Shown: positions 9,310 through 27,667 of the stretch, piece by piece
Layout: each line of letters opens with the position of its first letter
Position numbering within the stretch: the first letter of the stretch is position 1
Assembly: GCF_000007985.2 (NCBI RefSeq)
Contig: NC_002939.5
Location: 1,470,001-1,502,000 of the forward strand
From: Geobacter sulfurreducens PCA
GTDB taxonomy: Bacteria; Desulfobacterota; Desulfuromonadia; Geobacterales; Geobacteraceae
Length of the DNA: 32,000 nt
Reading direction: 5' to 3'
Position numbers and translations under genes: made by a program
Notes under the pieces: model-generated
Database searches by the model: none
Told to the model about the DNA's origin: nothing
The model's input: only the letters and a program-made list of their open reading frames with translations

Positions 9310-9345
9310 ACAGGTGCTATTATCTGGTCTTATAAACGCACCTGT
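9310..9345. promoter_or_regulatory. inverted repeat ACAGGTGC-N20-GCACCTGT upstream of phd/parE (candidate operator/promoter)
   Basis: The 8-bp perfect arms are at 9310-9317 and 9338-9345. They bracket TATTATCTGGTCTTATAAAC (AT-rich, -10-like TATAAA). The repeat ends 11 nt before the ATG at 9357. Confidence 0.4.
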
Positions 9346-9356
9346 TGGGAGGCCGT

Positions 9357-9948: not shown

Positions 9949-10032
9949 AGGTGGCGGGGCCCTGGAGGCGAATGTTTGCTGAGCGGGGTTGGGAATACAA
10001 CTTTGAATTGGATTTTGTACGGTGCAAATTAG

Positions 10033-10046
10033 GAAAATCAATCTTT
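10033..10046. repeat. 14-bp direct repeat GAAAATCAATCTTT, left flank of IS
   Basis: An identical 14-mer occurs at 11398-11411, immediately outside the two IS termini. Confidence 0.7.
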
Positions 10047-10111
10047 TATGGCGGCCCCGGTTTTCTTGGACACGAAAATGAGGTAAATCTAGGTGTTCAA
10101 GGAGGTCGTCA

Positions 10112-10474
10112 ATGGAAAAGGATGTCAGTGTCTCCGGTGCGGCGGAAGGAGAGCGTAGCTCGACTGGAGCAGCACCGGAAGTCAAACGTTGGAGCGCCAA
10201 CCGCAAAAAGGAGGTTGTCCTGCGGTTGATGCGCGGTGAACCAATCGATGCCTTGTCCCGTGAGTTGGGCATCGAAATCTATCGCCTGGAAGAGTGGCAT
10301 CAGAAAGCACTCCAGGGGATAGAATCTGCTCTCAAGGCTCGTGAAGGTGATCCGTTGGCAGCGGAACTCGATGCAGCCTTCAAGCGCATCGGTGAGATCA
10401 CCATGGAAAACGAGCTACTGCGGGAGAAAGCGAGGCGTGCCCACCCTTTGGCCCAGAGGAGATCGAAGAAATGA
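10112..10474 (+). CDS. IS3-family transposase OrfA (HTH plus coiled coil)
   Basis: 120 aa. RWSANRKKEVVLRLMRGEPIDALSRELGIEIYRLEEW looks like an HTH and is followed by a leucine-zipper-like helix. A GGAGG RBS is present. Confidence 0.75.
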   Translation: MEKDVSVSGAAEGERSSTGAAPEVKRWSANRKKEVVLRLMRGEPIDALSRELGIEIYRLEEWHQKALQGIESALKAREGDPLAAELDAAFKRIGEITMENELLREKARRAHPLAQRRSKK

Positions 10475-11361
10475 GTGCTACGATCTCCCCTGCCACCGGT
10501 AAAGCCTATGGCGTTCAGCGCGTCTGCCTTGCCTGGGGAGTGCCCCGCTCGTCGTTCTATAGCCGTGCAGGCAGAAAAACATTGCCTGCTGTACTGCTCA
10601 AGCGTGGTCCAAAAACACCGCTCTCTGACGACGAGGTACTTTCTCTCATCCGGACCGACCTGGAGACATCCCCCTTTGTCGGCGAAGGGCACCGTAAGGT
10701 CTGGGGACGACTACGCTTCGTCAAAGGGATAAAAGTCGGCCGCAAACGAGTGTTGCGTCTCATGCGGGAGAACAATCTGCTCTCCCCTCACCGGGTTGTT
10801 CAGGGACAGCCCAAGGACCACGCCGGCAAGATCATCACGGCGGCCCCCAACGTCATGTGGGGTACCGATGGCACCAAGATCTTCACCCTGGAAGAAGGGT
10901 GGTGCTGGTTGTTTACCGCCGTCGAGCATTGGAATGCCGAGTGCGTCGGTTGGCATGTGACCAAGAATGGCGACCGGTTTGCCGCATTGCAGCCGCTCGC
11001 CATGGGAATCAAGGCCCGTTTCGGCTCGGTCGGTGCCGCTGCTGCTCGAGGGTTGGCACTGAGGATGGATCACGGCAGCCAATACCTCTCAGAGCATTTC
11101 CAGAATCAGATCAAGTTCTGGGGAATTGCCCCAAGTTTCTCATTTGTTGCCGAACCGCAGACCAACGGGGTGACGGAACGGTTTAATCGGACTATCAAAG
11201 AGCAGGTCATCTATGGCCGCCATTACCGCACAATCGAAGAAGTAAGGATGGCAGTAGCTGACTTCATGGATCGTTACAACCGGCTGTGGCTGGTTGAAAA
11301 GCTCGGGTTCAGAAGCCCACGACAGGCTTTCGAGGAGTATCAACTCAAGAAGGCTGCGTGA
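10471..11361 (+). CDS. IS3-family transposase OrfB (DDE integrase core, rve)
   Basis: 296 aa. WGTDGTKI (first D), LRMDHGSQY (second D) and PQTNGVTERFNRTIKEQ (E) match the rve catalytic triad context. There is an ATGA overlap with orfA. Confidence 0.85.
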   Translation: MSATISPATGKAYGVQRVCLAWGVPRSSFYSRAGRKTLPAVLLKRGPKTPLSDDEVLSLIRTDLETSPFVGEGHRKVWGRLRFVKGIKVGRKRVLRLMRENNLLSPHRVVQGQPKDHAGKIITAAPNVMWGTDGTKIFTLEEGWCWLFTAVEHWNAECVGWHVTKNGDRFAALQPLAMGIKARFGSVGAAAARGLALRMDHGSQYLSEHFQNQIKFWGIAPSFSFVAEPQTNGVTERFNRTIKEQVIYGRHYRTIEEVRMAVADFMDRYNRLWLVEKLGFRSPRQAFEEYQLKKAA

Positions 11362-11423: not shown

Positions 11424-11780
11424 GTGGAAAAAACAATACGTGAATTAACAGTGAGAGTTCGGGAGTTTTGCGAAGCACGAGATTGGGATCAATTCCATGG
11501 CCCAAAGGATCTTGCTATAGGGGTCATTACAGAGGCTTCGGAACTCTTAGAGCATTTCCGCTTTCAGTCTGATGAACAGGCGTTGGCATTGTTGAATGAC
11601 CCTAAAATTAAAGAGGAGATCGAAGATGAGCTTGCCGATGTCCTATTCTTCCTGCTCCGTTTCTCGCAGTTGTTCGATGTTGACCTGACCAAGGCCCTGC
11701 TGAGGAAGATCGAGAAGAGCGAAAAGAAATATCCCGTAGAAAAGGCAAAAGGGAAGAATACGAAGTACACGAAGCTGTAG
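11424..11780 (+). CDS. MazG-like nucleoside triphosphate pyrophosphohydrolase (all-alpha NTP-PPase)
   Basis: 118 aa with a GTG start. EASELLEHF and EEIEDELADVLFFLLRF form the ExxE...ExxD metal-binding pattern of MazG-type enzymes. GC is lower than in the flanking genes. Confidence 0.75.
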   Translation: MEKTIRELTVRVREFCEARDWDQFHGPKDLAIGVITEASELLEHFRFQSDEQALALLNDPKIKEEIEDELADVLFFLLRFSQLFDVDLTKALLRKIEKSEKKYPVEKAKGKNTKYTKL

Positions 11781-11809: not shown

Positions 11810-14212
11810 TTGATCGTTTATTCCGCCACAAAAGCCAGGTTCAAAGAAGATGTCATGACCAATGACATCGGCGGCATCATCTTCAACGCCTTCCAGAATG
11901 CAACGGGGCGAAGTACCGGCAGGGCCGAAATCGAATCGTGGATGCACTCGCTGCAGTATATGGACCGAGTTCTCAGCGACGATGAAATCCCCCACGACGC
12001 CGGCGTCGCCATCGAGTACCACCTCCCTCAAACCTCCAAGCGTATCGACTTCATCCTAACCGGCCGGGACAGGGACCGGCGCGAGTCGGCCATTCTCGTT
12101 GAACTTAAGCAGTGGCAGAAGGCGGAGCTGACCCAGAGTGACGCCATCGTTATTACCCGCTTCAAGCACGGCACCGCCGAAACCCTTCACCCCTCCTACC
12201 AAGCCTGGTCTTACAAGCGCCTCCTTGAAGACTTCAACCAGACCGTACAAGAAGAACATATCGGTCTCTACCCCTGCGCCTACCTGCATAACTACGAAGA
12301 CGACGGGGTAATTACCCATCCGTTTTACAGCGACCATATCAAGCGGGCACCGATTTTCCTCAAGCCCGATGCCCTGAAACTGCAGCAGTTCATCAAGACT
12401 CACGTCAAATTCGGCGATACGACCCGGATTATGTACCGGATCGAGCACGGCAAGATCAAGCCGTCCAAGAACCTGGCCGATGAGCTTGCTTCAATGCTCA
12501 AGGGCAACCGGGAATTCGTCCTGATCGACGACCAGAAAGTGGTGTTCGAGAAGGCGAAACGGTTGGCAGAGCAGGCATCGGAGCACACCAAAAAGGTCCT
12601 GATCGTCGAGGGAGGGCCGGGCACTGGTAAGTCGGTTCTAGCGATTAACCTCCTGGTGGCGCTTACCGGCAAGGATCATGTCGTCCAGTACGTCACCCGC
12701 AACTCGGCCCCTCGGCTCGTCTACGAGGCCAAGCTTACCGGCCACTTCCGGAAAACTCATATTTCCAACATGTTATCCGGTTCCGGCTCGTATCACGCGA
12801 CTCCACCCAACACGTTCGGTTGCCTCATCGTGGACGAGGCGCACCGGTTGAACGAGAAGTCCGGAATGTTCAGCCACCTGGGGGAGAACCAGATCAAGGA
12901 GATCATCAGCGCCAGCAGGCTGAGTGTCTTCTTCATCGACGAAGACCAGAAGGTGACCCTGAAGGACATAGGCGACAAGGAGGCGATCCGCACCTGGGCG
13001 GAGAAGCTAGGTGCCGAAGTCGTGGAGATGAGCCTGGAGTCACAGTTTCGCTGCAATGGCTCTAACGGTTACCTGGCGTGGCTCGACAATACACTGCAGA
13101 TTCGGGAGACGGCCAACGAGACGCTGGATACCCGTGAGTACGACTTCCGCATTGTTGATAGCCCATCCGAACTGCACGGCCTGATCAAGGACAAGAACAA
13201 GATAAGTAACAAGGCACGTATGGTGGCAGGCTACTGCTGGGACTGGACCAGCAAGAAGAATCCTCATTTGAAGGACATTGTCATTGGCGACTACCGGGCG
13301 ACTTGGAACCTGGAGACAGACGGCCAGGCGTGGATCATAAAGCCCGACTCCGTCAGCGAGGTGGGGTGCATTCATACCTGCCAGGGGCTGGAGGTGGACT
13401 ACATCGGCGTCATCGTCGGGCCGGATTTGGTCGTCCGCGACGGCAGTGTGCTGACCCGGCCGGCCGAGCGGTCGAGAATGGACAAGTCGATCCAGGGGTG
13501 GAAGAAGCTGCTCAAGGATGATCCCGAAGGTGGCGCGGCGCGGCTAGACGCCATCATCAAGAACACCTACCGAACCCTCATGACGCGCGGCCAGAAGGGA
13601 TGCTACGTCTACTTCACAGACGAGGAGACACGCCGGTACTCCGCCGAACGGCTGCAGATCGGGCCGGCAGCAGAGCAGGTTGCCGAGAAACCGGTGCTGC
13701 CTGCAGACGAAGAAGCAGTGGTCCTGCCGTTCCGCCTTCTGGGGCCAGAGCAAGCGCGGCCATACGAGAACTGCGTACCGCTCTACGACTTCAAGATCGC
13801 CGCCGGCGGCTTCAGTGACGAGCAACAGGTGGATGATTGCGACTGGGTTGAACTGCCGGAAGAATTCCGTCCAAGGAAAGGGCTGTTTGTGGCCCAAGTG
13901 GTGGGTGAGTCGATGAACCGGCGCATCCCGAACGGGGCCTGGTGCCTCTTCCGCATCGCCTCGGCCGGCTCACGGAACGGCAAGGTCGTCCTCGCCTCGC
14001 ACCGGGAGATAGCCGATAACGATACCGGCGGACACTACACCGTCAAGATTTACGAGAGCACGAAGGAGAGTTTTTCTGATGGGACGTGGCGGCATGCGTC
14101 GATCATCCTGCGGCCGGACAGTGCCTTGCCTGGGTATGAGCCGATTGTGTTGAGCGAGGAGCAGGCGGAGGATTTGCGGGTGATTGGGGAGTTGGTGGCG
14201 GTGCTGGGGTGA
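11810..14212 (+). CDS. DUF2075-type (Schlafen-helicase/Nhi-like) nuclease-ATPase fused to a C-terminal LexA-like S24 peptidase domain
   Basis: 800 aa with a TTG start. N-terminal PD-(D/E)xK-like residues E69, D80, E98-x-K100 (IEYHL..RIDFILTG..ILVELKQW). Walker A VEGGPGTGKS and Walker B LIVDEAHRL. Family C-terminal motifs HTCQGLEVDYIGVIVG and YRTLMTRGQKGCYVYF. Residues about 655-790 align by eye to the LexA C-domain (IAAGG, GESM with S701, TVKIY with K746). Confidence 0.75.
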   Translation: MIVYSATKARFKEDVMTNDIGGIIFNAFQNATGRSTGRAEIESWMHSLQYMDRVLSDDEIPHDAGVAIEYHLPQTSKRIDFILTGRDRDRRESAILVELKQWQKAELTQSDAIVITRFKHGTAETLHPSYQAWSYKRLLEDFNQTVQEEHIGLYPCAYLHNYEDDGVITHPFYSDHIKRAPIFLKPDALKLQQFIKTHVKFGDTTRIMYRIEHGKIKPSKNLADELASMLKGNREFVLIDDQKVVFEKAKRLAEQASEHTKKVLIVEGGPGTGKSVLAINLLVALTGKDHVVQYVTRNSAPRLVYEAKLTGHFRKTHISNMLSGSGSYHATPPNTFGCLIVDEAHRLNEKSGMFSHLGENQIKEIISASRLSVFFIDEDQKVTLKDIGDKEAIRTWAEKLGAEVVEMSLESQFRCNGSNGYLAWLDNTLQIRETANETLDTREYDFRIVDSPSELHGLIKDKNKISNKARMVAGYCWDWTSKKNPHLKDIVIGDYRATWNLETDGQAWIIKPDSVSEVGCIHTCQGLEVDYIGVIVGPDLVVRDGSVLTRPAERSRMDKSIQGWKKLLKDDPEGGAARLDAIIKNTYRTLMTRGQKGCYVYFTDEETRRYSAERLQIGPAAEQVAEKPVLPADEEAVVLPFRLLGPEQARPYENCVPLYDFKIAAGGFSDEQQVDDCDWVELPEEFRPRKGLFVAQVVGESMNRRIPNGAWCLFRIASAGSRNGKVVLASHREIADNDTGGHYTVKIYESTKESFSDGTWRHASIILRPDSALPGYEPIVLSEEQAEDLRVIGELVAVLG

Positions 14213-14234
14213 TCTTACGGCGGATTGAGGTTCA

Positions 14235-17200
14235 ATGCGTTTAGCTCACGGCATATACGAAGCACTTCTCGATGAAGCTTTGCAGGAGGCCCTAGCCCTG
14301 CGGCCGGAACTGCGACGCGTTTTCAGCAAGATCGATCAGGAGGAGCAGCCGGCCCTCTATGCCGCCTTTGTCGCCCGGGTACTGGAGCAGGCGCTGCGAG
14401 AGGAGTCGGACCAGGAAAAGCGCCTCGCACTCTGCAACCGGATTCTTGGCTCCGTGGCTGCTGAGCCGGGTAGGGGGCATCTGGAAAAGCGCCGTCTGAT
14501 CCCGGAACAGAAGCCGCTCCTCTTGGAAATCACCCCGCCCAACTACAACCAATCCGGGCTCCCCCGGCCCCATACCTCTCTTGCACAAAGCAGTCTCTTT
14601 ACCGGAGCAGATGGTCATCTCCAGCTTGTCCATGAGTTGCTGGCTGAACTACGCTCCGCCGACGGGGTGGATATCCTCGTATCCTTCATCAAGTGGTCCG
14701 GTCTGCGGCTCCTCATGCCGGCTTTTGAAGATCTGCGTGACCGACAGGTCCCGGTGCGGCTGATCACCACCTCCTACATGGGGGCGTCCGATGCCCCGGC
14801 GGTGGAGTGGCTGGCTGGTCTCCCCAACGTGCAGGTCCGAGTCTCCTACGACACCGAGCGGACCCGGCTCCACGCCAAGGCCTATCACTTCCGGCGGCAG
14901 AGCGGCTTCTCCACCGCCTACATCGGCTCAGCCAACATGTCCCAGGCGGCGATTACCAGCGGGCTGGAGTGGAACCTGAAAGTCACCGCCCAGGACATGC
15001 CTCACGTGCTGGAGAAGTTCAGCGTCGAGTTCGAGACTTACTGGAACAGCCGGGAATTCGTCCCCTTCGATCCGGCCCGGCCGGAGCAGTTTCGCAGCGC
15101 CCTGGCCCGCGCCAAGAACAAGGAGATCAGCGGTCCGGCGGTCTTTTTCGATCTTACCCCCCACCCGTTTCAGGAGCGGATTCTGGAAGCGCTGGAGCGG
15201 GAGCGCAGCGCCCACGACCGCTGGCGCAATCTGGTCATCGCCGCCACCGGCACCGGTAAGACCGTGGTAGCGGCCTTTGATTTCAAGCGCTTCTATGAGC
15301 AGAAACAGAAGCAGGCAAAGCTCCTTTTCCTGGCCCACCGGCAGGAGATTCTCCAGCAGGCACTCGGCACCTTCCGCAACATCCTGCGGGACCAGAATTT
15401 CGGCGAACTGCAGGTCGGGCCCTATGACGCCACCCGTCTGGAGCACCTCTTCTGCTCCGTCGGTATGCTCACCTCCCGCCGCCTCTGGGAGCAGGTCGGC
15501 CCGGACTTCTACGACTACATCGTCATCGACGAAGCCCACCACGGCACGGCCGGCAGCTACCGTCCCATCTTCAACCACTTCTCCCCGCAGATACTGCTGG
15601 GACTCACCGCCACCCCGGAACGGATGGACGGCGATAACGTGGCCGCCGATTTTGGCAACCGCTTTGCCGCCGAGATCCGCCTCCCTGAAGCGCTGGAGGA
15701 GAAGCTCCTCTGCCCCTTCCACTACTTCGGCATTGCCGACCCCATCGCCATCAACGGCGATCAGTTCTGGCGCAATGGCAAGTACGATGCCGCGGCTCTG
15801 GAGAACGTCTATGTCCTCGATACGGCCAACGCCCGTAAGCGGGTGGCGGCGATCATTGAGGCTCTGAAGCGCTACGAGCCGGACGTAGCGAGCCTCAAGG
15901 GGATCGGTTTTTGCGTCACCATCCGCCATGCCGAGTACATGGCCGAGCAGTTCAGCCAGCGCGGCATCCCGTCAGCCCCCTTTGTCTCCGGCATCGACTC
16001 CGACCAGTGCGCCGACCTCCTGGCCCGGCTGAGAAACGGCCAGCTCACCTTCCTCTTCACCGTGGACAAGCTGAGTGAAGGGGTGGACGTGCCGGAGATC
16101 AACACCGTCCTCTTTCTGCGCCCCACCGAGAGCCTGACGGTCTTTCTCCAGCAGCTCGGCCGCGGCCTGCGCCATGCCCCGGAGAAGGAGTGCCTCACCG
16201 TCCTCGACTTTGTCGGTCAGGCCCACCGCCGCTACCGCATCGACACCAAGCTGAAAGCACTCCTCCCCCGGCACCGCTTCGCCATCGACAAGGAAGTGGA
16301 GCAAGATTTCCCCCATCTGCCGGCCGGCTGCGCCATCCAGCTTGACCGCCTCTCCCGCCAGTATGTGCTGGACAATATCCGGGAGAACTTCGGCCGTCTG
16401 GCGGTGCAGGTGCCGGACCGGCTCCAGACCTTTACCAGCGAGACCGGGCAGGAGCTGACCTTTGGCAACTTCATCCGCTACCACGATTACGAGCCGGAGG
16501 TGCTGCTGGCCAAGGAGTCGTGGAGCGAGTGGAAAGCCAAGGCCCAACTGGCGCCGATTCCGGTCGATCCCGATCTGGCGCGGCTGAAGAAAGCCCTGCT
16601 CCGGGCGGCCTTCATCAATGGCCCACGGGAAGCAGAGCTGCTGCGGCAACTGCTGGCCATGCTTGCCGCCGGGCAGGTGATCGAGGCGCTGGCTCTGGCC
16701 GGTTCATCGGCCATGCTGCTCTATTACCGCATCTGGGGGGATAGGGCGGAGAAGGTGGGGATTGCCTCGCTGGCAGAGGCCTTCCAACGGCTAGCCGCCA
16801 ACCCGAGCATCTGCGCCGATTTGGACGAGATTTTGGCCTGGTCGTTGGATACCACCGAAGTTGCCGGGATTGCCCCGGAGCTGCCGTATCGTGTGCCGCT
16901 GGAGTTGCACGCCCAGTATGGCATTCGTGAGGTTCAGGCCGCCTTTGGCCGTGCGACGCTGGAGAGCAGCGGCCAGACCGGGGTCGGGGTGATGCACTTT
17001 GCCGAGCAGAAGACCTATGCCCTGTTGGTGACCTTCCAGAAGACGGAAAAGGAGTTCTCCCCCAGCACCATGTATGCGGATTACCCCATCAGCCGGGAGC
17101 TGCTGCACTGGGAGTCCCAGGCCAACACCGCCCAGCATCACACCGACGGGCAGAACCTGATTCATCATCAGGAGCGGGGCTACACGGTTCTGGTATTTGC

Positions 17201-17360
17201 CCGTGGGAAGAAAAAGCGGAACGGGGTTACAGTGCCGTTCACTTACCTGGGGCCGGTGGATATGGTGAGTTATGAGAGCGAGCGGCCGATTAAGATGGTC
17301 TGGCGGCTCAGGTATGCGATGCCGGTGGAGATGTTTGAGGATAATCGGCGGGGTGGGTGA
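14235..17360 (+). CDS. PLD-family nuclease domain + SF2 (ResIII/DEAH) helicase + DUF3427-like C-terminal domain
   Basis: 1041 aa. HKD motif RLHAKAYHF...YIGSANMS. Helicase motifs I ATGTGKT, II VIDEAHH, III LTATP and VI QQLGRGLRH. The C-terminal 200 aa (YGIREVQAAFG...YALLVTFQK...YADYPIS...LHWESQ...VLVFAR) matches my recollection of DUF3427. Confidence 0.75.
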   Translation: MRLAHGIYEALLDEALQEALALRPELRRVFSKIDQEEQPALYAAFVARVLEQALREESDQEKRLALCNRILGSVAAEPGRGHLEKRRLIPEQKPLLLEITPPNYNQSGLPRPHTSLAQSSLFTGADGHLQLVHELLAELRSADGVDILVSFIKWSGLRLLMPAFEDLRDRQVPVRLITTSYMGASDAPAVEWLAGLPNVQVRVSYDTERTRLHAKAYHFRRQSGFSTAYIGSANMSQAAITSGLEWNLKVTAQDMPHVLEKFSVEFETYWNSREFVPFDPARPEQFRSALARAKNKEISGPAVFFDLTPHPFQERILEALERERSAHDRWRNLVIAATGTGKTVVAAFDFKRFYEQKQKQAKLLFLAHRQEILQQALGTFRNILRDQNFGELQVGPYDATRLEHLFCSVGMLTSRRLWEQVGPDFYDYIVIDEAHHGTAGSYRPIFNHFSPQILLGLTATPERMDGDNVAADFGNRFAAEIRLPEALEEKLLCPFHYFGIADPIAINGDQFWRNGKYDAAALENVYVLDTANARKRVAAIIEALKRYEPDVASLKGIGFCVTIRHAEYMAEQFSQRGIPSAPFVSGIDSDQCADLLARLRNGQLTFLFTVDKLSEGVDVPEINTVLFLRPTESLTVFLQQLGRGLRHAPEKECLTVLDFVGQAHRRYRIDTKLKALLPRHRFAIDKEVEQDFPHLPAGCAIQLDRLSRQYVLDNIRENFGRLAVQVPDRLQTFTSETGQELTFGNFIRYHDYEPEVLLAKESWSEWKAKAQLAPIPVDPDLARLKKALLRAAFINGPREAELLRQLLAMLAAGQVIEALALAGSSAMLLYYRIWGDRAEKVGIASLAEAFQRLAANPSICADLDEILAWSLDTTEVAGIAPELPYRVPLELHAQYGIREVQAAFGRATLESSGQTGVGVMHFAEQKTYALLVTFQKTEKEFSPSTMYADYPISRELLHWESQANTAQHHTDGQNLIHHQERGYTVLVFARGKKKRNGVTVPFTYLGPVDMVSYESERPIKMVWRLRYAMPVEMFEDNRRGG

Positions 17361-17419
17361 TTCTTGGGGCTGACAAGATAATCACTACTTCCAGACTTGT
17401 ATACAGGGGATCTAATAGC

Positions 17420-19183
17420 ATGGATGTCTTAACTGACAATGAGTTTTACCAGCACTACCTTCAGAATTCACAGCACATGATGTGGTTTTTAGGGGCAGGA
17501 ACGTCTCGTTCTGCTGGTTTGCCTACTGCTAGCGATATCATTTGGGATCTTAAACATCGATATTACTGCTTACATGAAAATCAGGATTATCAAAAACATG
17601 ACATCAATAATCATGCAATAAAAAGCAAAATCCAAAGTTATATGGATAGCAAGGGATTTCCTTTACAGTGGAGTCCAGAAGAATACTCATTTTATTTTGA
17701 ATTGGTCTTCCGCGATGATTACGAGGCGCAACGAAAGTACCTTTTAGAAGCCCTTGCCAGCAGAAAGGTGTCTCTGAATATCGGTCACCGAGTTCTTGCT
17801 GCCCTACTTGAGATGAACCAGACCAAAGTTGTTTTCACAACCAACTTTGATGATGTCATAGAAACCGCCTTCTCAGATATTAGTGGCAAGCATTTGTCTG
17901 TTTATCACCTTGAAGGATCCTATGCCGCCTTATCTGCATTGAATACCGAAGCCTTTCCCATTTACGCCAAGATTCATGGCGACTTCCGTTATCAAAAAAT
18001 AAAAAATCTTACCCCAGATCTGCAGACCAATGATCGCGAAATACATAAATGCTTTCTTGCTGCAGCTATCAGGTTCGGTCTTGTTGTATCAGGCTATAGT
18101 GGTCGTGATGAAAACGTTATGACTATGCTTCGGGCTGCAATCGATCAGAACAATGCATTCCCGCATGGGCTCTACTGGACCGTACCCTCTATTTCTAAGT
18201 CGGAGCCAGCCGTTCAGGATTTGATCACTTACGCACAAGGCAAAGGTGTTCGCGCCTATCTGGTGGAAACCGGTACATTTGATGAAATGCTCTCAAAGAT
18301 TTGGCGACAGGTGAAAGACAAACCTGCTGCCATCGATGCCAAAGTACGAACAGCCCGAGTTTGTCCCGTTTCCATACCACTACCCGGCCCCGGCAAATCC
18401 TTTCCGGCCTTGCGTACCAACGCTCTACCAGTGGTCACTCAATCCATCCGATGCGGAGTTGTAACGTTGGCTAGTCCTATAACCTTCTCCGAGCTGAAGG
18501 AAAGGATAAGTCAGAAATCGCCAAAAGCACTCCTGACGTACACGGAAAAGGTATTGTTTTTGGGTGGAGAGCCAGAAATCAGAAAGATTTTTTCAAATGA
18601 CGAGATCAATTCCATCGGTCAATACTATATTGATGAGATAGCTCAAAGCGTTGCCGCCTCTACTTTCTTGAAATCCTTTGTTGAGGAGGCAATTCTCACT
18701 GCGTTATTGCGCGAGAAACCCATTCTGCACCGTGTCCGGCATAGAACACATTATGCAGTTATACCGAATGCCTCAGCAAAAGATGACAGATTTTTGGATT
18801 TAAGAAAGGCAGTGGGGTTCAAAGGAGATCTTGGGTACATTACCGGAAACGTTACAAATGCAAAAGAATTGAGTTGGGCTGAAGCCGTGTCGATTCGTCT
18901 TGAAGAACGAGGGGGCAAGCTCTGGATCATGCTAAAACCGGAAATTTGGATAAAGCCATTGGATAGGCGAGAAGAGGCCACGGATTTCATTCGAAGTCGA
19001 AGACGTTATCGATTCAATCAATGTTCATATCAGATCCTCGATGCCTGGATCAAAATACTGTTCGGTTCAATCGGAGGTGGCGGTACGGTAAATATATCTT
19101 GTTTCCCTGATGCAGAGTTTAAAGCCGAGTTCGAGATCGGAACACGCACTGCCTTTAGTCTGGGGGTGGGATATGGCCGATAA
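17420..19183 (+). CDS. SIR2-APAZ protein (NADase partner of short pAgo; SPARSA type)
   Basis: 587 aa from the ATG at 17420, with AGGGGA as RBS. SIR2 Rossmann motifs [19 protein letters not shown] (N142) and KIHGD (H186). The long C-terminal half is consistent with APAZ. It overlaps the downstream Argonaute gene by 11 nt. GC drops sharply relative to the upstream helicase. Confidence 0.85.
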
Positions 19184-20594
19184 TCTTTCGCAGCTTGCGG
19201 CACATTCAACCATTCCAGAGCCCTTGCTTCTCTTCAAAGACAACCGTACAGACACACATCCTCTTCGTGGGCTCTCACAGTATGGGCCTTATAGCGCCTG
19301 TTTTAACCTTCCAGGTCAAGTTAGGCTAGCATACCTTGCCCCCACAGAGCATATGCGCAAGCTGGATGCCATTGTACGCGAGTTGCAGAACCCAGCTACG
19401 CCGAAGGAAGCGACGAACTATTATGTGGAGTATGGAGGATTTGAGAAAGTCTTCAAGGTGCCACTAGTTATGCCGCAGGAACATCTGAGATGTTTAGCCC
19501 TGGATGAATGTCATGGTGTTGCGGCAAATGGCAACGGACTCGCTCTTGCAGATAAGATTGTTCAGTCGATGTCTGGTCTTTTTCGACAAAAACATGCGTT
19601 TGATGTTCTGTTAGTGTATTTGCCTGCCAGCTGGAAGAAGTGTTTTGAGTATGATGGATTTGACCTGCATGACCGAATAAAGGCGAAAGTTGCTCCGCTC
19701 AATTTGCCTATTCAAATCATCAACGACACTGCGCTAACGAGACAATGCCGCGCCAATGTCATGTGGGGTGTCAGCGTTGCCCTGTATGCTAAAGCAGGCG
19801 GAATACCGTGGAAGCTGGCGGACTGGGATAAAGACGAAGCTTATATCGGACTCAGTTATGCCATCAAGAAAAATGCTGAAGGACAAGAATATACAACGTG
19901 CTGCAGCCAGGTCTTTGATCCGGATGGAACCGGCTTTGAATTTGTAGCCTACGACACGCGCGAATTTATTACCGATCGTAAAGGCAACCCGTATCTCAGC
20001 TACCAGGAAATGCAATCCGTTCTTTCAAAAAGCCTTCACCTTTATCAGAGCAGCCATAACGGACGAATGCCACGAAAAATTTTCATTCACAAAACTACGC
20101 ACTTCACTGAAGATGAAATACAGGGGGCATTCGATTCTTTCAGCAGTTCGACAGAGATCGAACTCGTGCAGATTATTCAGAGCACAAACTGGTATGGATT
20201 GAAAGTTGACGGTAAAAAGGGAGATAAACCTGTAGCTCCAGCATCATACCCAGTAGATAGAGGTTTGTATCAACCGCTGACAGAATCAGAATGCTTGCTC
20301 TGGACTCAAGGTAGCGTTATGGGGGTGAATCAACAAAATCCGGGTCAACCGGTGTTCAAGGAAGCGGCTCTTACTCCTCTACCGAACCCGATCATGTTGC
20401 GTCGTTTTTCAGGCAATGGAGGCTGGCATGCTACCTGTTCAAGCATTCTTGCGCTGACGAAGGTTGACTGGAACAATAATACGCTCTACAAAAAGTTACC
20501 AGTCACTCTCGTTTATTCACAAGTTTTCGCAGATGTTGTGAAGCAGACACCGGAAATTGTTAACGAAATATATGATTATCGGTTTTTTATGTAA
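19173..20594 (+). CDS. short prokaryotic Argonaute (MID-PIWI only, predicted catalytically inactive)
   Basis: 473 aa. PIWI-like [17 protein letters not shown] sits where active Agos carry G-x-D. The size is too small for N/PAZ domains. The ATG at 19173 lies inside the 3' end of the SIR2-APAZ gene. Confidence 0.85.
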
Positions 20595-20650
20595 TGTTTG
20601 ATCTTAACTTAAGACCAGCACATCGAGTAATACTCTAATAGGCAAAATAT

Positions 20651-21832
20651 ATGGATTTAATCGAAATAGCTGATGTAAGAGAATGGCTAAGCCAATTTAG
20701 TGAAGCAGACATCCCAATTGCTATATCGATGTTAAGATCATTGAATCTAGTTTCTCATAATGCGTTTAGTGCCGGGATTGAAAATAGCATTAAAACTATC
20801 GTTAAAAAACATGGGAAAGCCGCGGTTTTTCCAGTTAAACGTGCGTTGGTTAAGAAAGTGCCTGGAAAAGACTATCGGCATCTTTATCAGAGTGCAGATG
20901 CGATTGGTTACTTACTCACAAACCTTGAAAGAAGTATGCCTAGGAGCATTTCTGTAGAGCCAACGCACGCCAGCATGAAGGCCGAGAAGGTAAAACATAT
21001 AGTTTTTATTGATGATTTAATAGGTACTGGGAAGCGAGTTAATAGCTTTTGGCAAGAATGGGCTAACAAAAGTTATAAGAGTTGGTTGTCTTTCAGGTAT
21101 TGCGAGTTATACATCTTGAGTTATGCAGCATCTAGAAGCGGGATTGAGTATTTATTAAATGAAATACCATATCTTAAACCTGAGAATATACTTACATCAA
21201 TATCACTGCCTAGAGTCAGTCCACTTGCCAATGATGAAATGAAAAGAATTTGTAACTACTATGGGGAAAAAACCGCAAAGTCAGTAGTGAAGTTCGGTTA
21301 TGGTAACCAGATGTTAAATGTAATTTTTCAGCATGCTTGTCCTAATAATGCACCCTCCATCTTATGGTCTCCCGGAAAACAGTGGAAGGCTTTATTTCCG
21401 AACAGATCCATTCCAGCATCCTTTCATAAGGTGTTTGGTGGAACCTTTCCATTTAAAATAGCTGATTCGTTATGGGATATTCATCAGCCTCGGCTAGCAC
21501 TGGAGATTCTCGATCGTCTAGAATCAGGAAGAATACAACGGGAAACTGTTGAACTGTTAACAGTCCTGGGTTTTCTGGCGAGAGGTGTTGGCCTTATAAG
21601 AATATATGAATGTACCCTCTTGGAGAAATCTAGGGTCGACGAAGCCATTTTGATATTGAAGCAGGTGGGACTTGTAACAAAGAATTTTGAGATTACCAGT
21701 TTTGGTAAAGAAGTTCTTAATCGATTTAAGGCAACAGATAAACGGAAATATGAGCTTGTCTGCGACCAATTATTGTACTACCCTCATCAATTTAAGGGGC
21801 TCCAGAGAAAATCTAGTGAAGGCCCAACCTGA
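20651..21832 (+). CDS. phosphoribosyltransferase-like (PRTase) protein with C-terminal winged-helix-like domain; candidate retron effector
   Basis: 393 aa. KHIVFIDDLIGTGKRV (D121 D122 ... T126 G127) matches the PRPP-binding loop pattern (hydrophobic4-DD-xx-TG). The C-terminal LEILDRLESGRIQRETVELLTVLGFLARG...ILILKQVGLVTKNFEITSFGKEVL looks wHTH-like. GC is very low. Confidence 0.6.
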   Translation: MDLIEIADVREWLSQFSEADIPIAISMLRSLNLVSHNAFSAGIENSIKTIVKKHGKAAVFPVKRALVKKVPGKDYRHLYQSADAIGYLLTNLERSMPRSISVEPTHASMKAEKVKHIVFIDDLIGTGKRVNSFWQEWANKSYKSWLSFRYCELYILSYAASRSGIEYLLNEIPYLKPENILTSISLPRVSPLANDEMKRICNYYGEKTAKSVVKFGYGNQMLNVIFQHACPNNAPSILWSPGKQWKALFPNRSIPASFHKVFGGTFPFKIADSLWDIHQPRLALEILDRLESGRIQRETVELLTVLGFLARGVGLIRIYECTLLEKSRVDEAILILKQVGLVTKNFEITSFGKEVLNRFKATDKRKYELVCDQLLYYPHQFKGLQRKSSEGPT

Positions 21833-21990
21833 GTGTTGGGTACGAGTAGGCAGCGGATTCCGCGAGCCATTGGAATAGCACATGAATGAACAAGGATATT
21901 AATGGCAAACGCTTACGTTCGTATGCCTTACTACGTTCGCCATTAATGTCCTCGCTTCGCGAGGTTGAAGTAGATGAGTATCTGGAGCCC
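21797..21990 (+). ncRNA. candidate retron msr-msd non-coding RNA
   Basis: A perfect 10-bp inverted repeat, GGGCTCCAGA (21797-21806) and TCTGGAGCCC (21981-21990), brackets the PRTase-RT intergenic region. Inside are a 6-bp hairpin (21823-21840) and a long stem (21893-21911 pairing 21934-21952, one mismatch and one G:T wobble). An alternative 6-bp hairpin is at 21950-21964. The exact ends and the branching G are not determinable by eye. Confidence 0.55.
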
Positions 21991-23116
21991 GCTTTTATTT
22001 AATGCTGAAGGAAAGAAACAAGGGTATGATTGCCGTTATCTCCACAAGTTAACTGACCAAGGGAATAAACTCTCAGACAGTGGTTTGCCTGTAATTTTCA
22101 CGCTCGCTCACCTGTGTGCGATGGCAGGTGTTTCCTTTTCTCTCATTCACTCCTGTGTGTCCAGGAAATACGACCCATATAGAAGCTTTACAATTAAAAA
22201 GAGGTCGGGAGGGTATCGCCAAATTGTGGTGCCTGAACCTGAGTTAATGCATCTCCAGAGATGGATTAATGAGTTTATATTGAAGCGGGCAAAGGTGCAT
22301 TCTTGTGCTGCTGCATATATTTCAGGCTCCGATATAAAAATGAATGCTTCAAAGCATCTCGGTGCAAACTGGCTAATAAAGTTAGATATACAGAGATTTT
22401 TCGAGTCTATATCAGAACTGCAAGTTTATTATATCTTCCATAGACTTGGGTATCCAAAATTATTGTCGTTTGAAATGGCCAGAATCTGTACCAGAGTAGA
22501 CACCCAAAGCAATAGACATTTTAGACCAAGATGGAATAACAGAATCCATCACTTCGAAATCCTTGAGTACTGTGATTCTAGGGTTGGTTATTTACCACAA
22601 GGTGCTCCTACTAGTCCGAGTTTGTCCAATTTAACCTGCCGAAAACTTGATAAAGAAATTTACGACCTTAGTTGCCGTTCTGATTGCCGATATACTAGAT
22701 ATGCAGATGACTTCGCCTTTTCTTTTATAGATCTTGATAGGGAAAAAGCCTCAAATTTTGTAAATCAAGTCAGTCGAATCATATCATCTTACGGTTTTAG
22801 AAAGAATGCTCGAAAAACAAAGATCATACCCCCTGGATCAAAAAAAATTATTACCGGGCTTGTTTTGGGTAATGGGAAAGTGCATCTTCAGAAAGAATTA
22901 AAGGATTACATAAGACAAAATATATACTTTGCAACTAAATATGGTGTAGATGAACACTGTAAAAAACGTGGATTCGTCTCAATAGATGGATTTTATAATC
23001 ATCTGGAAGGAATTGTTAATTTTGCACTATTTATTGAACCAGATTTTGGAGAAAAAGCCTTTGAGGAGTTTCGTGCAATTAAGTGGCCATCTTTAATAGT
23101 GGGGCTTCATGCTTAG
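21974..23116 (+). CDS. retron-type reverse transcriptase
   Basis: 380 aa. RT motifs: FTIKKRSGGYRQIVVP (motifs 1/2), KLDIQRFFESI (motif A), LPQGAPTSPSLSNL (motif B), YTRYADDFAFS (YADD, motif C). Retron-associated signatures: NASKH (NAxxH, residues 124-128) and IITGLVL (VTG-like, residues 292-295). GAGG RBS lies 9 nt upstream. Confidence 0.85.
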   Translation: MSIWSPLLFNAEGKKQGYDCRYLHKLTDQGNKLSDSGLPVIFTLAHLCAMAGVSFSLIHSCVSRKYDPYRSFTIKKRSGGYRQIVVPEPELMHLQRWINEFILKRAKVHSCAAAYISGSDIKMNASKHLGANWLIKLDIQRFFESISELQVYYIFHRLGYPKLLSFEMARICTRVDTQSNRHFRPRWNNRIHHFEILEYCDSRVGYLPQGAPTSPSLSNLTCRKLDKEIYDLSCRSDCRYTRYADDFAFSFIDLDREKASNFVNQVSRIISSYGFRKNARKTKIIPPGSKKIITGLVLGNGKVHLQKELKDYIRQNIYFATKYGVDEHCKKRGFVSIDGFYNHLEGIVNFALFIEPDFGEKAFEEFRAIKWPSLIVGLHA

Positions 23117-23167
23117 AACAAGTGGTCGTGTCGCAACCATTTACAAGTTCATAATATTTTGAGAACC

Positions 23168-24148
23168 ATGACCTTTCTCCCCACCTCCCTCAAATTCTTC
23201 TCCTCCCTCTCCCGCGCCTCCGGCGCAGTCTGGACCGAGGCCACCAAGCGCAAGGCGCCGCACAAGCCGCTGCTGCTCCTGGCGGTGCTGGATCTGGTTC
23301 ATCGCGGTGTCATCACTACGCCGTTCATCGCCGTCAGTGGCGATCTGGTGGAGCTGAACGAGCTGTTCAACCTCTACTGGCGGCGGATCATCCCTCTCGG
23401 TCAGACCAGCAGCATCGCCTTCCCCTTCTCCCGACTCGCCCGCGAACCGTTCTGGGAGCTGGTCCCCCAGCCGGGGAAAAACATCACCGATGCGGTAATC
23501 AACAACACCTCCTCCGTCAGCTACCTGCGCAAGTACGCCCTGGGGGCGAAGCTGGACGACGGGCTGTTCCGGGTCATGGCGAGCGGGGAGGGGCGGGAGG
23601 CACTGCGGGAAGCGCTGCTCCTTTCCTGCTTCTCGCCCGAGGCGTCGGCGCAGCTGCGGGAGCAGTCGATCATCAACCGAGAGGCGTTCGACTACAGCCG
23701 ACTGCTGGAGGAACAGGCCCACCTGCCGCTGGTGAAGGAGATCGTCGAGGCGGACAACTACCGGCCCACGGTGCGGGACCAGGCCTTCCGCAAGGTGGTG
23801 ACCTCGGCCTACGACCACCGCTGCGCCCTGTGCGGCATCCGCATCGTCACCCCCGACGGCCACACGGTGGTGGAGGCAGCCCACATCGTGCCGTGGAGCA
23901 GAAGCCAAAACGACGACATCCGCAACGGCATGGCCCTCTGCAGAACCTGTCACTGGGGCTTCGACGAGGGGATGCTCGGCGTCTCTGACAACTACACCGT
24001 CATCACCTCCCGCTCCATCGGCATCGACCCCAACTTCCCCGGCCTGCTCCAGACCCTCTCCGGCCGTGGCATCATCCCGCCGGCCGACCCGGATAAATTC
24101 CCGGCCCGCGAGTATTTGGCCGAGCATCGCCGGGCGTGGCGGCTGTAA
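23168..24148 (+). CDS. HNH endonuclease with uncharacterised N-terminal DNA-reading-like domain (type IV restriction-like)
   Basis: The C-terminal HNH/Zn motif is DHRCALCG...EAAHIVPW...IRNGMALCRTCHWGFDEG. The N-terminal 200 aa begin KAPHKPLLLLAVLDLV...IAFPFSRLAREPFWEL. GC returns to about core level. I prefer the ATG at 23168 over the TTG at 23159. Confidence 0.7.
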   Translation: MTFLPTSLKFFSSLSRASGAVWTEATKRKAPHKPLLLLAVLDLVHRGVITTPFIAVSGDLVELNELFNLYWRRIIPLGQTSSIAFPFSRLAREPFWELVPQPGKNITDAVINNTSSVSYLRKYALGAKLDDGLFRVMASGEGREALREALLLSCFSPEASAQLREQSIINREAFDYSRLLEEQAHLPLVKEIVEADNYRPTVRDQAFRKVVTSAYDHRCALCGIRIVTPDGHTVVEAAHIVPWSRSQNDDIRNGMALCRTCHWGFDEGMLGVSDNYTVITSRSIGIDPNFPGLLQTLSGRGIIPPADPDKFPAREYLAEHRRAWRL

Positions 24149-24202
24149 CGTACGTCATGAAGGTCGAAAACATATTCAGATACGAATCAGAAGTGAGGAG
24201 AT

Positions 24203-25249
24203 ATGGCACGACAACGAACTAGCCCAATGGAAGAAATGATTTTGGTTGCCACCAAGCTCCCCTGGTGGGCGTGCCTGCTGCTGGCACTTGTGTCGTACGC
24301 CGTGCTTCACGTGATGGCAATGCGGCCTGTAATGCCTGCTACGGTTGTCCCCGGCCAGATGGGTGACGCCGTGGCACGGGGGCTCATTACGACTCTGGCC
24401 ATGTTTGGACAGTACGTGATGCCATTTGCGTTTGCTCTGGCTGCCCTGCTGTCGGCCGTTAATGAATATCGGAATAAAAAGAGCGGTACTTTCGTCCCTA
24501 ATCATCTTGATGTAGCGCCACCTTCCAGGAAAAGAGTGTCAACAGAAGCTAGCGTTCCAATGCCCACATCCGGTAATTCCGGAAAGATGAACCGGGATTT
24601 CGATCATATGCTTCCTGGTGGTGAGGAAGAACTAGCAATTGAGAATCCGCAACCTGTCCCATTGCCGCAGCAGTGGGGCATGTCTGTCATTCAAATGATG
24701 GAGTGGAAGCGTTTTGAAATTGTCACCCGGGAATTTCTGAAGATGACAGGATATGATGCCCATGAAACGAAGGTGGGCGCTGATGGCGGAGTGGATATTA
24801 GGGTCACAAAGCCCAGTAACGATACTTTCCAGGGTATTGTGCAGTGCAAAGCTTGGAATTCGTATCGGGTTGGGGTAAAGCCAGTGCGCGAGCTTTATGG
24901 TGTCATGGCCGCCGAAAAGGCGACGGCTGGTATGGTTATCACATCCGGTACCTTTACTGCGGAAGCGGAAGAATTTGCTAAAGGGAAGGTCAAACTAATT
25001 TCTGGCGTGAATTTTCTTGAGCTTATTCGAAAATTGCCACCGGAGAAACAACAAAGGCTTCTGGATATTGCATTGGAAGGGGATTATCAAACGCCAACGT
25101 GCCCACAGTGTGACCTGAAAATGACACTGCGCGAAAATAAGTCGGGGAAAAATCCAGGGTCAAAATTCTGGGGATGTGTCCGGTATCCCCACTGTCGGCA
25201 AACGCTCGTATATACCGGGAACGGAAGCCGGGTCAGGCTTCCAAGTTGA
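24203..25249 (+). CDS. membrane-anchored Mrr-like restriction endonuclease with C-terminal topoisomerase-type zinc ribbon
   Basis: Two N-terminal hydrophobic helices (LPWWACLLLALVSYAVLHVMA; MFGQYVMPFAFALAALLSAV). Mrr_cat-like core WKRFEIVTREFL...GADGGVDIRV...GIVQCKAW. C-terminal CPQCD...FWGCVRYPHCRQT. GAGGAG RBS. Confidence 0.75.
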   Translation: MARQRTSPMEEMILVATKLPWWACLLLALVSYAVLHVMAMRPVMPATVVPGQMGDAVARGLITTLAMFGQYVMPFAFALAALLSAVNEYRNKKSGTFVPNHLDVAPPSRKRVSTEASVPMPTSGNSGKMNRDFDHMLPGGEEELAIENPQPVPLPQQWGMSVIQMMEWKRFEIVTREFLKMTGYDAHETKVGADGGVDIRVTKPSNDTFQGIVQCKAWNSYRVGVKPVRELYGVMAAEKATAGMVITSGTFTAEAEEFAKGKVKLISGVNFLELIRKLPPEKQQRLLDIALEGDYQTPTCPQCDLKMTLRENKSGKNPGSKFWGCVRYPHCRQTLVYTGNGSRVRLPS

Positions 25250-25918: not shown

Positions 25919-25964
25919 TGTTGTAAATTGTTATATTGTTGCCATCACACCGGAGATGGTGATC

Positions 25965-26618
25965 ATGACGAACGCCCTGTTGCTCAAAAGCATCCCCTAT
26001 GAGGAGTTTGACTACCAGACCCTGCTGGATGTCGTTCATGGGTATGCCCGGCCACGGATGAAGATTTCCGCGATGCTGGCAAAGGGCGATATCATCCGGG
26101 TCAAGAAGGGGCTCTACATCCTCGGCGAACCTCTGCGCCGTCGGCCTTTCTGCCGGGAACTGCTCGCCAATCTCGTCTATGGCCCATCCTATATTTCTCT
26201 TGAATACGCCTTGCACTATCACGGCCTGACCCCGGAGCGGGTCGAGGCGGTGACTTCGGTTACCTGCGGGCGGTCACGGACCTTCGCTACCCCGGTCGGC
26301 ACCTTTTCCTATCGAATGATCCCGCTGGAAGCCTTTCGCACCGGCATGGACCGCGTTGAGTTGGATGATGGCCGCTCCTTCCTCGTGGCCATTCCGGAAA
26401 AGGCGCTGGCCGACCGGATCGTTGCCGACCGGGGCGCCGGCATCTCCACCCAGAAAGAGCTGCACGAGTACCTGCTGTCCAGCCTGCGCATCGATCCCGG
26501 CGGTCTCCGTGAACTCGATCCGGTCCGTGTTGCGGAGATCGCCCGTGCGTACCGCTCCCGCAGAGTAAAACTATTGGCCGATCTGATCAGCCGCCTGCAC
26601 AGAAGAGGGGGACGATGA
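25965..26618 (+). CDS. abiEi: type IV toxin-antitoxin system antitoxin AbiEi
   Basis: KGDIIRVKKGLYILG and YGPSYISLEYALHYHGLTPE are typical of AbiEi. It overlaps the abiEii start by 4 nt. An alternative ATG is at 25956. Confidence 0.8.
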   Translation: MTNALLLKSIPYEEFDYQTLLDVVHGYARPRMKISAMLAKGDIIRVKKGLYILGEPLRRRPFCRELLANLVYGPSYISLEYALHYHGLTPERVEAVTSVTCGRSRTFATPVGTFSYRMIPLEAFRTGMDRVELDDGRSFLVAIPEKALADRIVADRGAGISTQKELHEYLLSSLRIDPGGLRELDPVRVAEIARAYRSRRVKLLADLISRLHRRGGR

Positions 26619-27490
26619 TGCACGAGGCCGTGGCCCGCATGCTTGCCAAATACGAACCAAAGAGCGTTGACGACTCGGTCAGGGCTCTGCGGGAGATTAT
26701 CCAGGAGGTGGCGCTGCTCGGACTCTGGCGGTCGAAGTTTTTCGAGCATGCCGCGTTTTACGGCGGCACTGCTCTGCGTATCCTGTACGGACTCGACCGG
26801 TTCTCCGAGAATCTGGATTTTTCGCTGCTGGAACCGTCGCCTGATTTCAATCTTGCGCGTTATACGGCATCACTTGAGGAGGAATTGTCGGCCTTCGGCT
26901 TCAACGTCCGGGTGGAGATGGTCGGCAAGGCCGTGGAATCGGCGGTTCAGTCTGCGTTTCTCAAAGCCAACACCCGTAACGAACTCCTGGTCATCGAGAC
27001 CGGTGGAGAGCTTGCCGGTCAGGTTGCCGCCGGCCAGGTGCTGAAGGTGAAGATCGAGGTGGATACGGACCCGCCGACCGGGTTTACCACCTCGACCCGT
27101 TATCTGCTGCAACCGATACCCTTTGCCGTTCGGAGCTATTCGCTCCCGGACCTGTTTGCCGGCAAGATGCATGCGCTCCTCTTCCGCAGGTGGAAAAACC
27201 GGGTCAAGGGGCGCGACTGGTATGATTTCGTCTGGTATGCTGCCAACCATCCGCAGCTTAATCTTGCCCACCTCGAGCAGCGGATGCGCCAGACCGGCCA
27301 TTGGAGCGGGGATCTGCCACTTTCTGCTGCCGCGTTCAGAGAGTTGCTGTCCGATAGCATCGACCGGCTTGATGTCGATCAGGCACGCAACGACGTGGCA
27401 CCGTTCGTCAAGGATCAACAGGCGCTCGCTCTCTGGTCCCATGACTTTTTCCGGGATGTTGCGAGACGCGTTCAGACTGATGAAGGATGA
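26615..27490 (+). CDS. abiEii: AbiEii/AbiGii-family nucleotidyltransferase toxin
   Basis: 291 aa. FYGGTALRILYGLDRFSENLDFSL (NTase G-x-a-l plus D-x-D context), LPDLFAGKMHALLFR and GRDWYDF are typical of the family. Confidence 0.85.
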   Translation: MMHEAVARMLAKYEPKSVDDSVRALREIIQEVALLGLWRSKFFEHAAFYGGTALRILYGLDRFSENLDFSLLEPSPDFNLARYTASLEEELSAFGFNVRVEMVGKAVESAVQSAFLKANTRNELLVIETGGELAGQVAAGQVLKVKIEVDTDPPTGFTTSTRYLLQPIPFAVRSYSLPDLFAGKMHALLFRRWKNRVKGRDWYDFVWYAANHPQLNLAHLEQRMRQTGHWSGDLPLSAAAFRELLSDSIDRLDVDQARNDVAPFVKDQQALALWSHDFFRDVARRVQTDEG

Positions 27491-27601
27491 ACTCGGCAAT
27501 CTCAAGGAGTGAAGGACATACCCGGCGAATCAAGACCGAACGCAACGGTTGCTGACGCCGGGAGAAGTATCTGGTCGAGTATCGCAGAGAATGGCGGTTA
27601 T

Positions 27602-27658
27602 GACCCCCCTCAATCCCCCCTATTCCATAGGGGGGAAGCGAACGACGAGAGCAGGGGG
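27602..27658. repeat. 57-bp direct repeat, copy 1, containing a 9-bp-stem hairpin CCCCCCTAT-TCC-ATAGGGGGG
   Basis: GACCCCCCTCAATCCCCCCTATTCCATAGGGGGGAAGCGAACG is identical to 28008-28050. The following 14 nt carry 2 mismatches. The hairpin is at 27615-27635. Confidence 0.85.
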
Positions 27659-27667
27659 GTGGTGTCC

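Follow-up and report, generated by a model that had tools for sequence, protein, structure and literature searches.

Are the two overlapping genes that code for a SIR2-APAZ protein and a short Argonaute in a 32,000-nucleotide (nt) stretch of the Geobacter sulfurreducens PCA genome (NC_002939.5, positions 1,470,001 to 1,502,000, forward strand) the Sir2/Ago pair already characterised from this species, or a relative of it, and do they act alone or with their neighbours? The whole stretch is called here the window, and all positions are counted from its first letter. A first-pass annotation, made from the letters alone, had recognised the pair at 17420-20594, had described it as a SPARSA-type system in which an inactive Argonaute unleashes a SIR2 NADase, and had left its exact identity as a possibility. 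As detailed below, the answer to the first question came from comparison with solved proteins, the answer to the second from the relatives of the pair and from the genes that surround it.

Identity of the two proteins

The two open reading frames (ORFs), their coordinates and their overlap were reproduced as first described:

17420..19183, + strand: sir2-apaz gene (GsSir2), ATG start, 587 amino acids (aa) plus stop.
19173..20594, + strand: ago gene (GsAgo, a short prokaryotic Argonaute (pAgo), MID-PIWI only), ATG start, 473 aa plus stop.
19173..19183, + strand: overlap between the sir2-apaz stop region and the ago start, ATGGCCGATAA, 11 nt.

GsSir2 was identical at 587 of its 587 residues to the PDB chain 8in8_B ('Sir2 superfamily protein') and to five further entries, and GsAgo at 473 of its 473 residues to 8in8_C ('Piwi domain protein') and to seven further ones; the entries matched by the pair were 8IN8, 8JKZ, 8JL0, 8K87, 8K88, 8Y7Z, 8Y80 and 8Y82. 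The first of these is the Geobacter sulfurreducens SIR2-APAZ/Ago-guide RNA (gRNA)-DNA complex (PMC10474274), and 8Y7Z, 8Y80 and 8Y82 are the G. sulfurreducens SPARSA in its monomeric and tetrameric states (PMC11452484). Exact-sequence look-ups led to G. sulfurreducens records for both proteins (AAR34736.1 / WP_010942011.1 / Q74DF6 for GsSir2 and AAR34737.1 / WP_010942012.1 / Q74DF5 for GsAgo).

The domain searches gave a SIR2_2 match in Pfam for GsSir2 (residues 137-264, E 1.5e-17), together with a PADLOC match to Aga_SIR2-PNTD1-PNTD2 class I over residues 14-580 (E 2e-209), which bears out the SIR2-APAZ fold first proposed; GsAgo matched PADLOC pAgo_I class I over residues 6-473 (E 1.9e-193, for a model of 457 positions). 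On this pair the split PADLOC models scored 695 and 641 bits, versus 261 and 333 bits for the fused models PDLC02420/PDLC02384. We take GsSir2/Ago to belong to clade S1B of the short pAgos, in its split form, in the scheme of Koopal et al. 2022.

Since the sequences are identical to those of the solved proteins, the identity of the pair is settled, and we conclude with near certainty that the locus is GsSir2/Ago (GsSPARSA), the two-gene abortive-infection defence module of Geobacter sulfurreducens. What had been put forward as 'that pair or a close relative' is thus that pair, residue for residue. The locus is the type example of SPARSA and not merely a member of the family, and the system is already known, its exact proteins having been published with function and structure, as had been said of the class as a whole.

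A few caveats attach to this identification. The Pfam Piwi profile reached GsAgo below threshold only (17.4 bits versus 28.9, E 0.0027, residues 173-308); such a score is usual for short pAgos. When a profile of 26 GsAgo family sequences was compared with the PIWI domain of human Ago2 (hAgo2; a query fragment checked against the PDB and found to be 100% identical to hAgo2 589-859), the hhalign probability was 0.4% and hmmsearch gave no match. The function assays on GsSir2/Ago were all performed in Escherichia coli or in vitro, and the published papers contradict each other on how many heterodimers make up the active complex. Because the Pfam Piwi score was sub-threshold and the hAgo2 comparison not significant, the MID-PIWI assignment of GsAgo rests on identity with solved structures and on the PADLOC models, not on Pfam. 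Nothing counter to the GsSir2/Ago reading was found in the sequence.

Gene starts and overlap

Each of the two genes can also be read from a longer in-frame start (GTG at 17357, giving 608 aa, for sir2-apaz, and ATG at 19110, giving 494 aa, for ago), and some gene callers pick the 608-aa and 494-aa forms. The 587-aa and 473-aa forms were preferred over these, since they match exactly the proteins that were crystallised or solved by cryo-electron microscopy and since a purine-rich, Shine-Dalgarno-like run precedes each of the two shorter starts:

17405..17410, + strand: Shine-Dalgarno-like AGGGGA, read directly from the sequence, 9 nt 5' of the sir2-apaz ATG; putative function.
19162..19170, + strand: Shine-Dalgarno-like GGGGGTGGG, within the end of sir2-apaz, 2 nt 5' of the ago ATG; putative function.

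The 11-bp gene overlap is the one given for GsSir2/Ago by Zaremba et al. (bioRxiv 10.1101/2021.12.14.472599). In DNA of 46% GC, ORFs of 587 and 473 codons would be far beyond what chance can produce, and no ORF longer than 93 aa was found on the opposite strand of 17420-20594.

The SIR2-APAZ protein

The domains of GsSir2, with the codons of the residues discussed below, are as follows:

17420..18343, + strand: SIR2 NADase domain, residues 1-308, a range deduced from the linker and APAZ limits of PMC10781750.
18344..18412, + strand: SIR2-APAZ linker, residues 309-331, limits from PMC10781750.
18413..19180, + strand: APAZ domain, residues ~332-587, limits (331-587) from PMC10781750.
17843-17845, + strand: N142 codon, in TTNFDD, which starts at residue 140.
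17975-17977, + strand: H186 codon, in KIHGD, which starts at residue 184.
18107-18109, + strand: D230 codon, in the SIR2 domain.

All the motifs on which the first reading was built (N142 and KIHGD with H186 in GsSir2, KAGGIPWKL and YIGLSYAI in GsAgo) occupy the residues assigned to them. The GAG NAD-binding loop corresponds to G25-A26-G27, and when GsSir2 was considered together with 49 relatives (n = 50), G25, A26, G27, A37, N142, F143, D144, H186, G187, D188 and D230 were invariant. Mean identity to the relatives was 63% for the SIR2 half versus 41% for the APAZ half. The two residues proposed as catalytic do form the confirmed catalytic dyad: the N142A and H186A mutants are devoid of NADase activity (PMC10781750; PMC11452484). 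The D230A mutant loses both NAD+ binding and defence (Zaremba et al., bioRxiv 10.1101/2021.12.14.472599). As for the C-terminal half, APAZ is the analogue of the N-terminal lobe of long Agos, and the nucleic-acid channel is formed by APAZ and Ago jointly.

The Argonaute and its PIWI domain

Two codons of GsAgo are of concern here:

19854-19856, + strand: S228 codon, in YIGLSYAI, which starts at residue 224.
20091-20093, + strand: K307 codon, invariant in the family.

The claim of a catalytically dead Argonaute had two parts, which fared differently. The first, that the protein does not cut, agrees with the literature: GsAgo has an inactive PIWI domain, and the short pAgos are without the DEDX tetrad (Zaremba et al., bioRxiv 10.1101/2021.12.14.472599; PMC10474274), and its structure is a typical MID-PIWI fold (PMC10781750; 2024 review). 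The second, that YIGLSYAI stands where slicing Agos carry a catalytic Asp, was supported only approximately. The Pfam Piwi profile was then used as a common ruler, on which residues can be mapped approximately only; GsAgo 173-308 corresponds to profile positions 22-156 and the hAgo2 fragment, over its residues 2-292, to positions 12-301. Read in this way, the KAGG of GsAgo (K207, the first residue of KAGGIPWKL) and the KLGG of hAgo2 both lie at profile position ~55-56. D669 of hAgo2 falls at ~154, beside H306/K307 of GsAgo, and D597 of hAgo2 comes ~5 profile positions past S228, across a shorter loop, both placements being as approximate as the ruler itself. The relative positions of D597 and S228 appear consistent with a match of FLGADV to YIGLSY. 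S228, H306 and K307 are each unchanged in all 26 GsAgo family members. On this approximate mapping, S228 may plausibly occupy the place of the first catalytic Asp, and H306 or K307 would be expected at that of the other Asp.

Published function and mechanism

The first-pass annotation had attributed to the pair, as the established model for its class, guide-RNA-directed recognition of invader DNA followed by NAD+ hydrolysis and abortive infection, and had suggested an obligate heterodimer; both are on record for the identical proteins. According to Zaremba et al. (bioRxiv 10.1101/2021.12.14.472599), GsSir2 and GsAgo form a stable, obligate heterodimer, protect E. coli against lambda-vir and SECphi27, and block transformation by pCDF (CloDF13 origin) ~100-fold. 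In the same work (bioRxiv 10.1101/2021.12.14.472599) the complex was found to prefer an RNA guide and a single-stranded DNA (ssDNA) target, and the small RNAs that co-purified with it had a 5'-AU end and were enriched for plasmid origin regions. NAD+ is bound by the Sir2 subunit at ~1:1, complementary ssDNA triggers its conversion to ADP-ribose (ADPR) in vitro, NAD+ is depleted in cells, and either D230A or a bulky C-terminal tag on Ago kills the activity (bioRxiv 10.1101/2021.12.14.472599). A sensor loop of PIWI (N272, Y274) reads the guide/target duplex, and mutants of this loop lose activity (PMC11452484). Every check named by the first-pass annotation (family assignment, NAD+ assays, mutants, co-purification, small-RNA sequencing) is in fact already published.

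The mechanism published for these exact proteins runs as follows. The products of the two tightly coupled genes assemble into an obligate 1:1 heterodimer, in which Ago and APAZ load short, 5'-phosphorylated 5'-AU RNAs derived from transcripts and enriched for plasmid origins of the ColE1 and CloDF13 types. When the guide pairs with a complementary single strand of invader DNA, the PIWI sensor loop senses the duplex, upon which SIR2 is released or rearranged, with H186 becoming aligned with N142, and NAD+ is hydrolysed to ADP-ribose and nicotinamide. The ensuing depletion of NAD+ leads to death or arrest of the infected or transformed cell and so protects the population. Ago serves as a sensor only, without cutting. 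In Geobacter, its native host, the pair presumably has this role too.

Activation: four heterodimers or one

It is on the step that frees or rearranges SIR2 that the published accounts diverge, and a 2024 review still calls the activation mechanism unclear. One possibility is that activation takes place within a single heterodimer, the guide/target duplex driving a closed-to-open shift that would free SIR2 without any higher-order assembly. When the gRNA-DNA duplex was added, native polyacrylamide gel electrophoresis revealed no higher-order SIR2-APAZ/Ago oligomers, and the density for SIR2 disappeared once the target had bound (Wang et al. 2023, PMC10474274); a monomeric SIR2 mechanism was likewise described by Zhen et al. 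2024 (PMC10781750) and in the 2024 review. Against it stand the tetrameric target-bound and NAD+-bound structures 8Y80 and 8Y82 of Cui et al. 2024 (PMC11452484), as well as mutants of the interface, e.g. Y168A, which break both the tetramer and the NADase activity (Cui et al. 2024, PMC11452484). In the model of these authors, H186 is repositioned beside N142 in the tetramer only (PMC11452484). Because the interface mutants lose activity, activation by assembly of four heterodimers is more likely than activation of the heterodimer only; the latter we hold to be unlikely.

Relatives of the pair

To place the pair among its relatives, we scanned the GTDB representative genomes, which yielded 64 loci with an Ago relative (46-87% identity), 51 of them with a complete pair. 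Within these 51 (Ago identity 46-79%), the Sir2-APAZ gene was without exception directly upstream of the Ago gene. The two genes overlapped by 1-11 nt in 33 pairs (16 pairs with exactly 11 nt, 11 pairs with 8 nt); 17 others had a gap of 0-20 nt, and a single outlier had the genes separated by 415 nt. The PRTase and the type IV restriction enzyme whose genes flank the pair in the window (see below) were found in none of the 64 loci; therefore the conserved unit is the two-gene cassette, and its flanking genes vary. No other conserved operon partner was seen by Zaremba et al. (bioRxiv 10.1101/2021.12.14.472599).

The same scan of the GTDB representative genomes gave no match in G. sulfurreducens, its best Ago match being put at 79% identity, though NCBI holds the exact proteins from this species. 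The stretch that carries the pair may be masked in the GTDB collection, or the representative genome may be without the island. Because of possible masking, this miss was not taken as a strain-specific absence.

Two arrangements recur around the cassette in the relatives. At L013, L014, L015, L023, L038 and L046 it is nested in a type I restriction-modification operon, with hsdM and hsdS directly 5' of it and hsdR 0-2.4 kb 3'. At L006, L007, L009 and L031 a Hachiman-like pair, made of a HamA-domain protein and a DEAD-box helicase of ~1190 aa, lies directly 3' of Ago.

The defence island around the pair

The pair is part of a mosaic defence island that occupies ~9-28 kb (~19 kb) of the window, between a housekeeping left flank (amidohydrolase, ABC transporter, ThiF, sulfite reductase) and a right flank with an aldo-keto reductase. 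Apart from the pair and from the retron described in the next section, its features are:

9050-9571, + strand: ORF without Pfam or PADLOC match.
9649-10272, - strand: ORF without Pfam or PADLOC match.
10471-11361: IS3-type transposase (rve, HTH_21), at the left edge of the island.
11424-11780, + strand: MazG-like small ORF, preceding the Schlafen-type gene.
11810-14212, + strand: Schlafen-group-3 helicase, 800 aa, with a C-terminal S24 (LexA-like) peptidase domain.
14235-17360, + strand: PLD nuclease + SF2 helicase + DUF3427, 1041 aa; PADLOC type IV methyl-directed restriction enzyme, 1.2e-199.
23159-24148, + strand: HNH nuclease.
24203-25249, + strand: Mrr_cat (Mrr-type) nuclease with a zinc ribbon.
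25956-26618 and 26615-27490, + strand: AbiEi and AbiEii, respectively; PADLOC 7e-67 and 6e-113.
27509-28036, + strand: DUF559 protein.

GC content is 38-48% at ~17.3-23.2 kb versus 60-68% in the flanks, and the pair and the retron look like recently acquired DNA within the island. The smaller GC steps inside this segment (~46% for the pair, ~38-42% for the retron) suggest separate horizontal acquisitions. The restriction enzyme gene that ends 59 nt 5' of sir2 has, unlike Sir2/Ago, a host-like GC content of ~62-64%. A search for direct repeats flanking the low-GC insert gave short pairs at chance level only. The tRNA scan of the window found none, which leaves the window without a tRNA-linked integration site.

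GC skew takes strongly positive values (~+0.2) at 9.0-10.5 kb, near the island's left end. The Schlafen-type protein had weak PADLOC matches only (PDC-S41, AbiO, Nhi); together with the MazG-like ORF, its gene may form an uncharacterised defence gene pair.

A retron next to the pair

Directly downstream of ago, the following features were found:

20651-21832, + strand: PRTase-CE + wHTH protein; PADLOC PRTase_III-A, 9.8e-90; Pfam PRTase-CE + wHTH-PRTase_assc.
21974-23116, + strand: retron reverse transcriptase (RT); PADLOC RT_III-A, 1.6e-165.
21797-21990, + strand: candidate retron msr-msd non-coding RNA (ncRNA), from an inverted repeat and its fold.

Judged by its gene content and the candidate ncRNA, 20651-23116 is to all appearances a complete type III-A retron. 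The candidate ncRNA bridges the two genes, overlapping the end of the PRTase ORF and the first 17 nt of the RT ORF. It has a perfect 10-nt, a1/a2-like inverted repeat (GGGCTCCAGA / TCTGGAGCCC) around 174 nt, contains a hairpin with 19-nt arms at 21893-21952, and folds with -76.3 kcal/mol (z -4.5). Plasmid relatives of the RT were obtained by tblastn; a perfect repeat of 10-21 nt is found in the same place in five of six plasmid PRTase-RT loci (L072-L076), and GGGCTC/GAGCCC is common to the repeats of some of them. The Rfam scan of the whole window at gathering thresholds gave no match, and the Rfam E-value scan of 20500-23400 gave a spurious mir-335 only and no retron ncRNA family. No close relatives of the RT were found in the metagenome and viral contig scans.

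This proximity raises the second part of our question, i.e. whether Sir2/Ago and the type III-A retron are co-transcribed and functionally coupled, the RNA-DNA hybrid of the retron or the products of its RT influencing what Ago senses. The ago stop (20594) and the PRTase start (20651) are 56 nt apart, no terminator-like site was found on the + strand in this gap, and both systems lie in one low-GC stretch (~17.4-23.1 kb). It would also fit that RNA/DNA duplexes are what SPARSA detects and that retrons produce RNA-DNA hybrids. The relatives tell otherwise: the PRTase adjoins the pair in 0 of the 64 loci, with a weak RT match in only 2. Moreover, the pair alone gives defence in E. coli, and the absence of other conserved operon partners comes from the same study (Zaremba et al., bioRxiv 10.1101/2021.12.14.472599). 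The GC contents also differ, with ~46% for Sir2/Ago and 38-42% for the retron. The promoter and terminator scans of 14000-24500 returned counts at or below shuffle expectation, and are a weak guide to transcription units; they gave no + strand promoter match upstream of sir2. As there is no co-occurrence in the relatives, a Sir2/Ago-retron composite was rejected as the explanation of the locus, and coupling of the two systems is considered very improbable.

Comparison with known systems

Compared with GsSir2/Ago (GsSPARSA) as published, the two proteins show no difference, each being 100% identical from end to end, and their genes have the same 11-nt overlap. CcSir2/Ago from Caballeronia cordobensis (L026) is likewise split into adjacent genes and acts against phages and pCDF in the same way, but its published overlap is 8 bp instead of 11 bp (bioRxiv 10.1101/2021.12.14.472599), and it is 68% identical to the present pair for Ago and 51% for Sir2-APAZ. 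PgSir2-Ago (Paraburkholderia graminis) and other fused SIR2-APAZ-pAgo proteins have the same domains in the same order, but as one polypeptide where here there are two genes. We take these fused proteins to be clade S1A.

SPARTA (TIR-APAZ + short pAgo; e.g. PDB 8FEX, 8I87) resembles the pair in its inactive short pAgo, its APAZ-fused NADase, its RNA-guided sensing of ssDNA and its use of NAD(P)+ depletion for abortive infection, and its Agos are distant homologues of GsAgo (E 6e-22 to 1e-25). It differs by its effector, which is TIR instead of SIR2, and by its activation through tetramerisation, which is undisputed. ThsA (Thoeris) and DSR2 are, like GsSir2, NADases of the SIR2 fold that contain an Asn/His dyad. 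ThsA, of which N112/H152 correspond to N142/H186 of GsSir2, is the closest structural relative (bioRxiv 10.1101/2021.12.14.472599), and GsSir2 gave a weak PADLOC match to it (E 1.5e-5). The triggers are different: a signalling nucleotide for ThsA, a phage tail tube protein for DSR2, and an Argonaute-bound guide/target duplex for GsSir2/Ago.

The idea that GsSir2 is a housekeeping sirtuin, i.e. an NAD-dependent protein deacylase, beside an unrelated nuclease, to which the NCBI names ('SIR2 family protein' and 'nuclease PIN') and sub-threshold NCBIfam matches of the CobB deacylase type might point, was rejected as next to impossible, since these matches are far below cut-off (at most 28.7 bits versus 221-320) and the published biochemistry refutes it: NAD+ is hydrolysed to ADPR on target recognition, the Sir2 NADase of ThsA is the closest in structure (bioRxiv 10.1101/2021.12.14.472599), and solved structures show a MID-PIWI fold for the partner.

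To conclude, the locus holds the founding experimental example of SPARSA, a system that has been assayed against phages and plasmids, whose guides have been sequenced and whose NADase has been studied biochemically and by mutation, and for which at least eight structures are deposited. The window adds to this the native genomic context only, protein-level novelty being none. What the relatives show is a self-contained two-gene cassette that lands beside varying defence genes.

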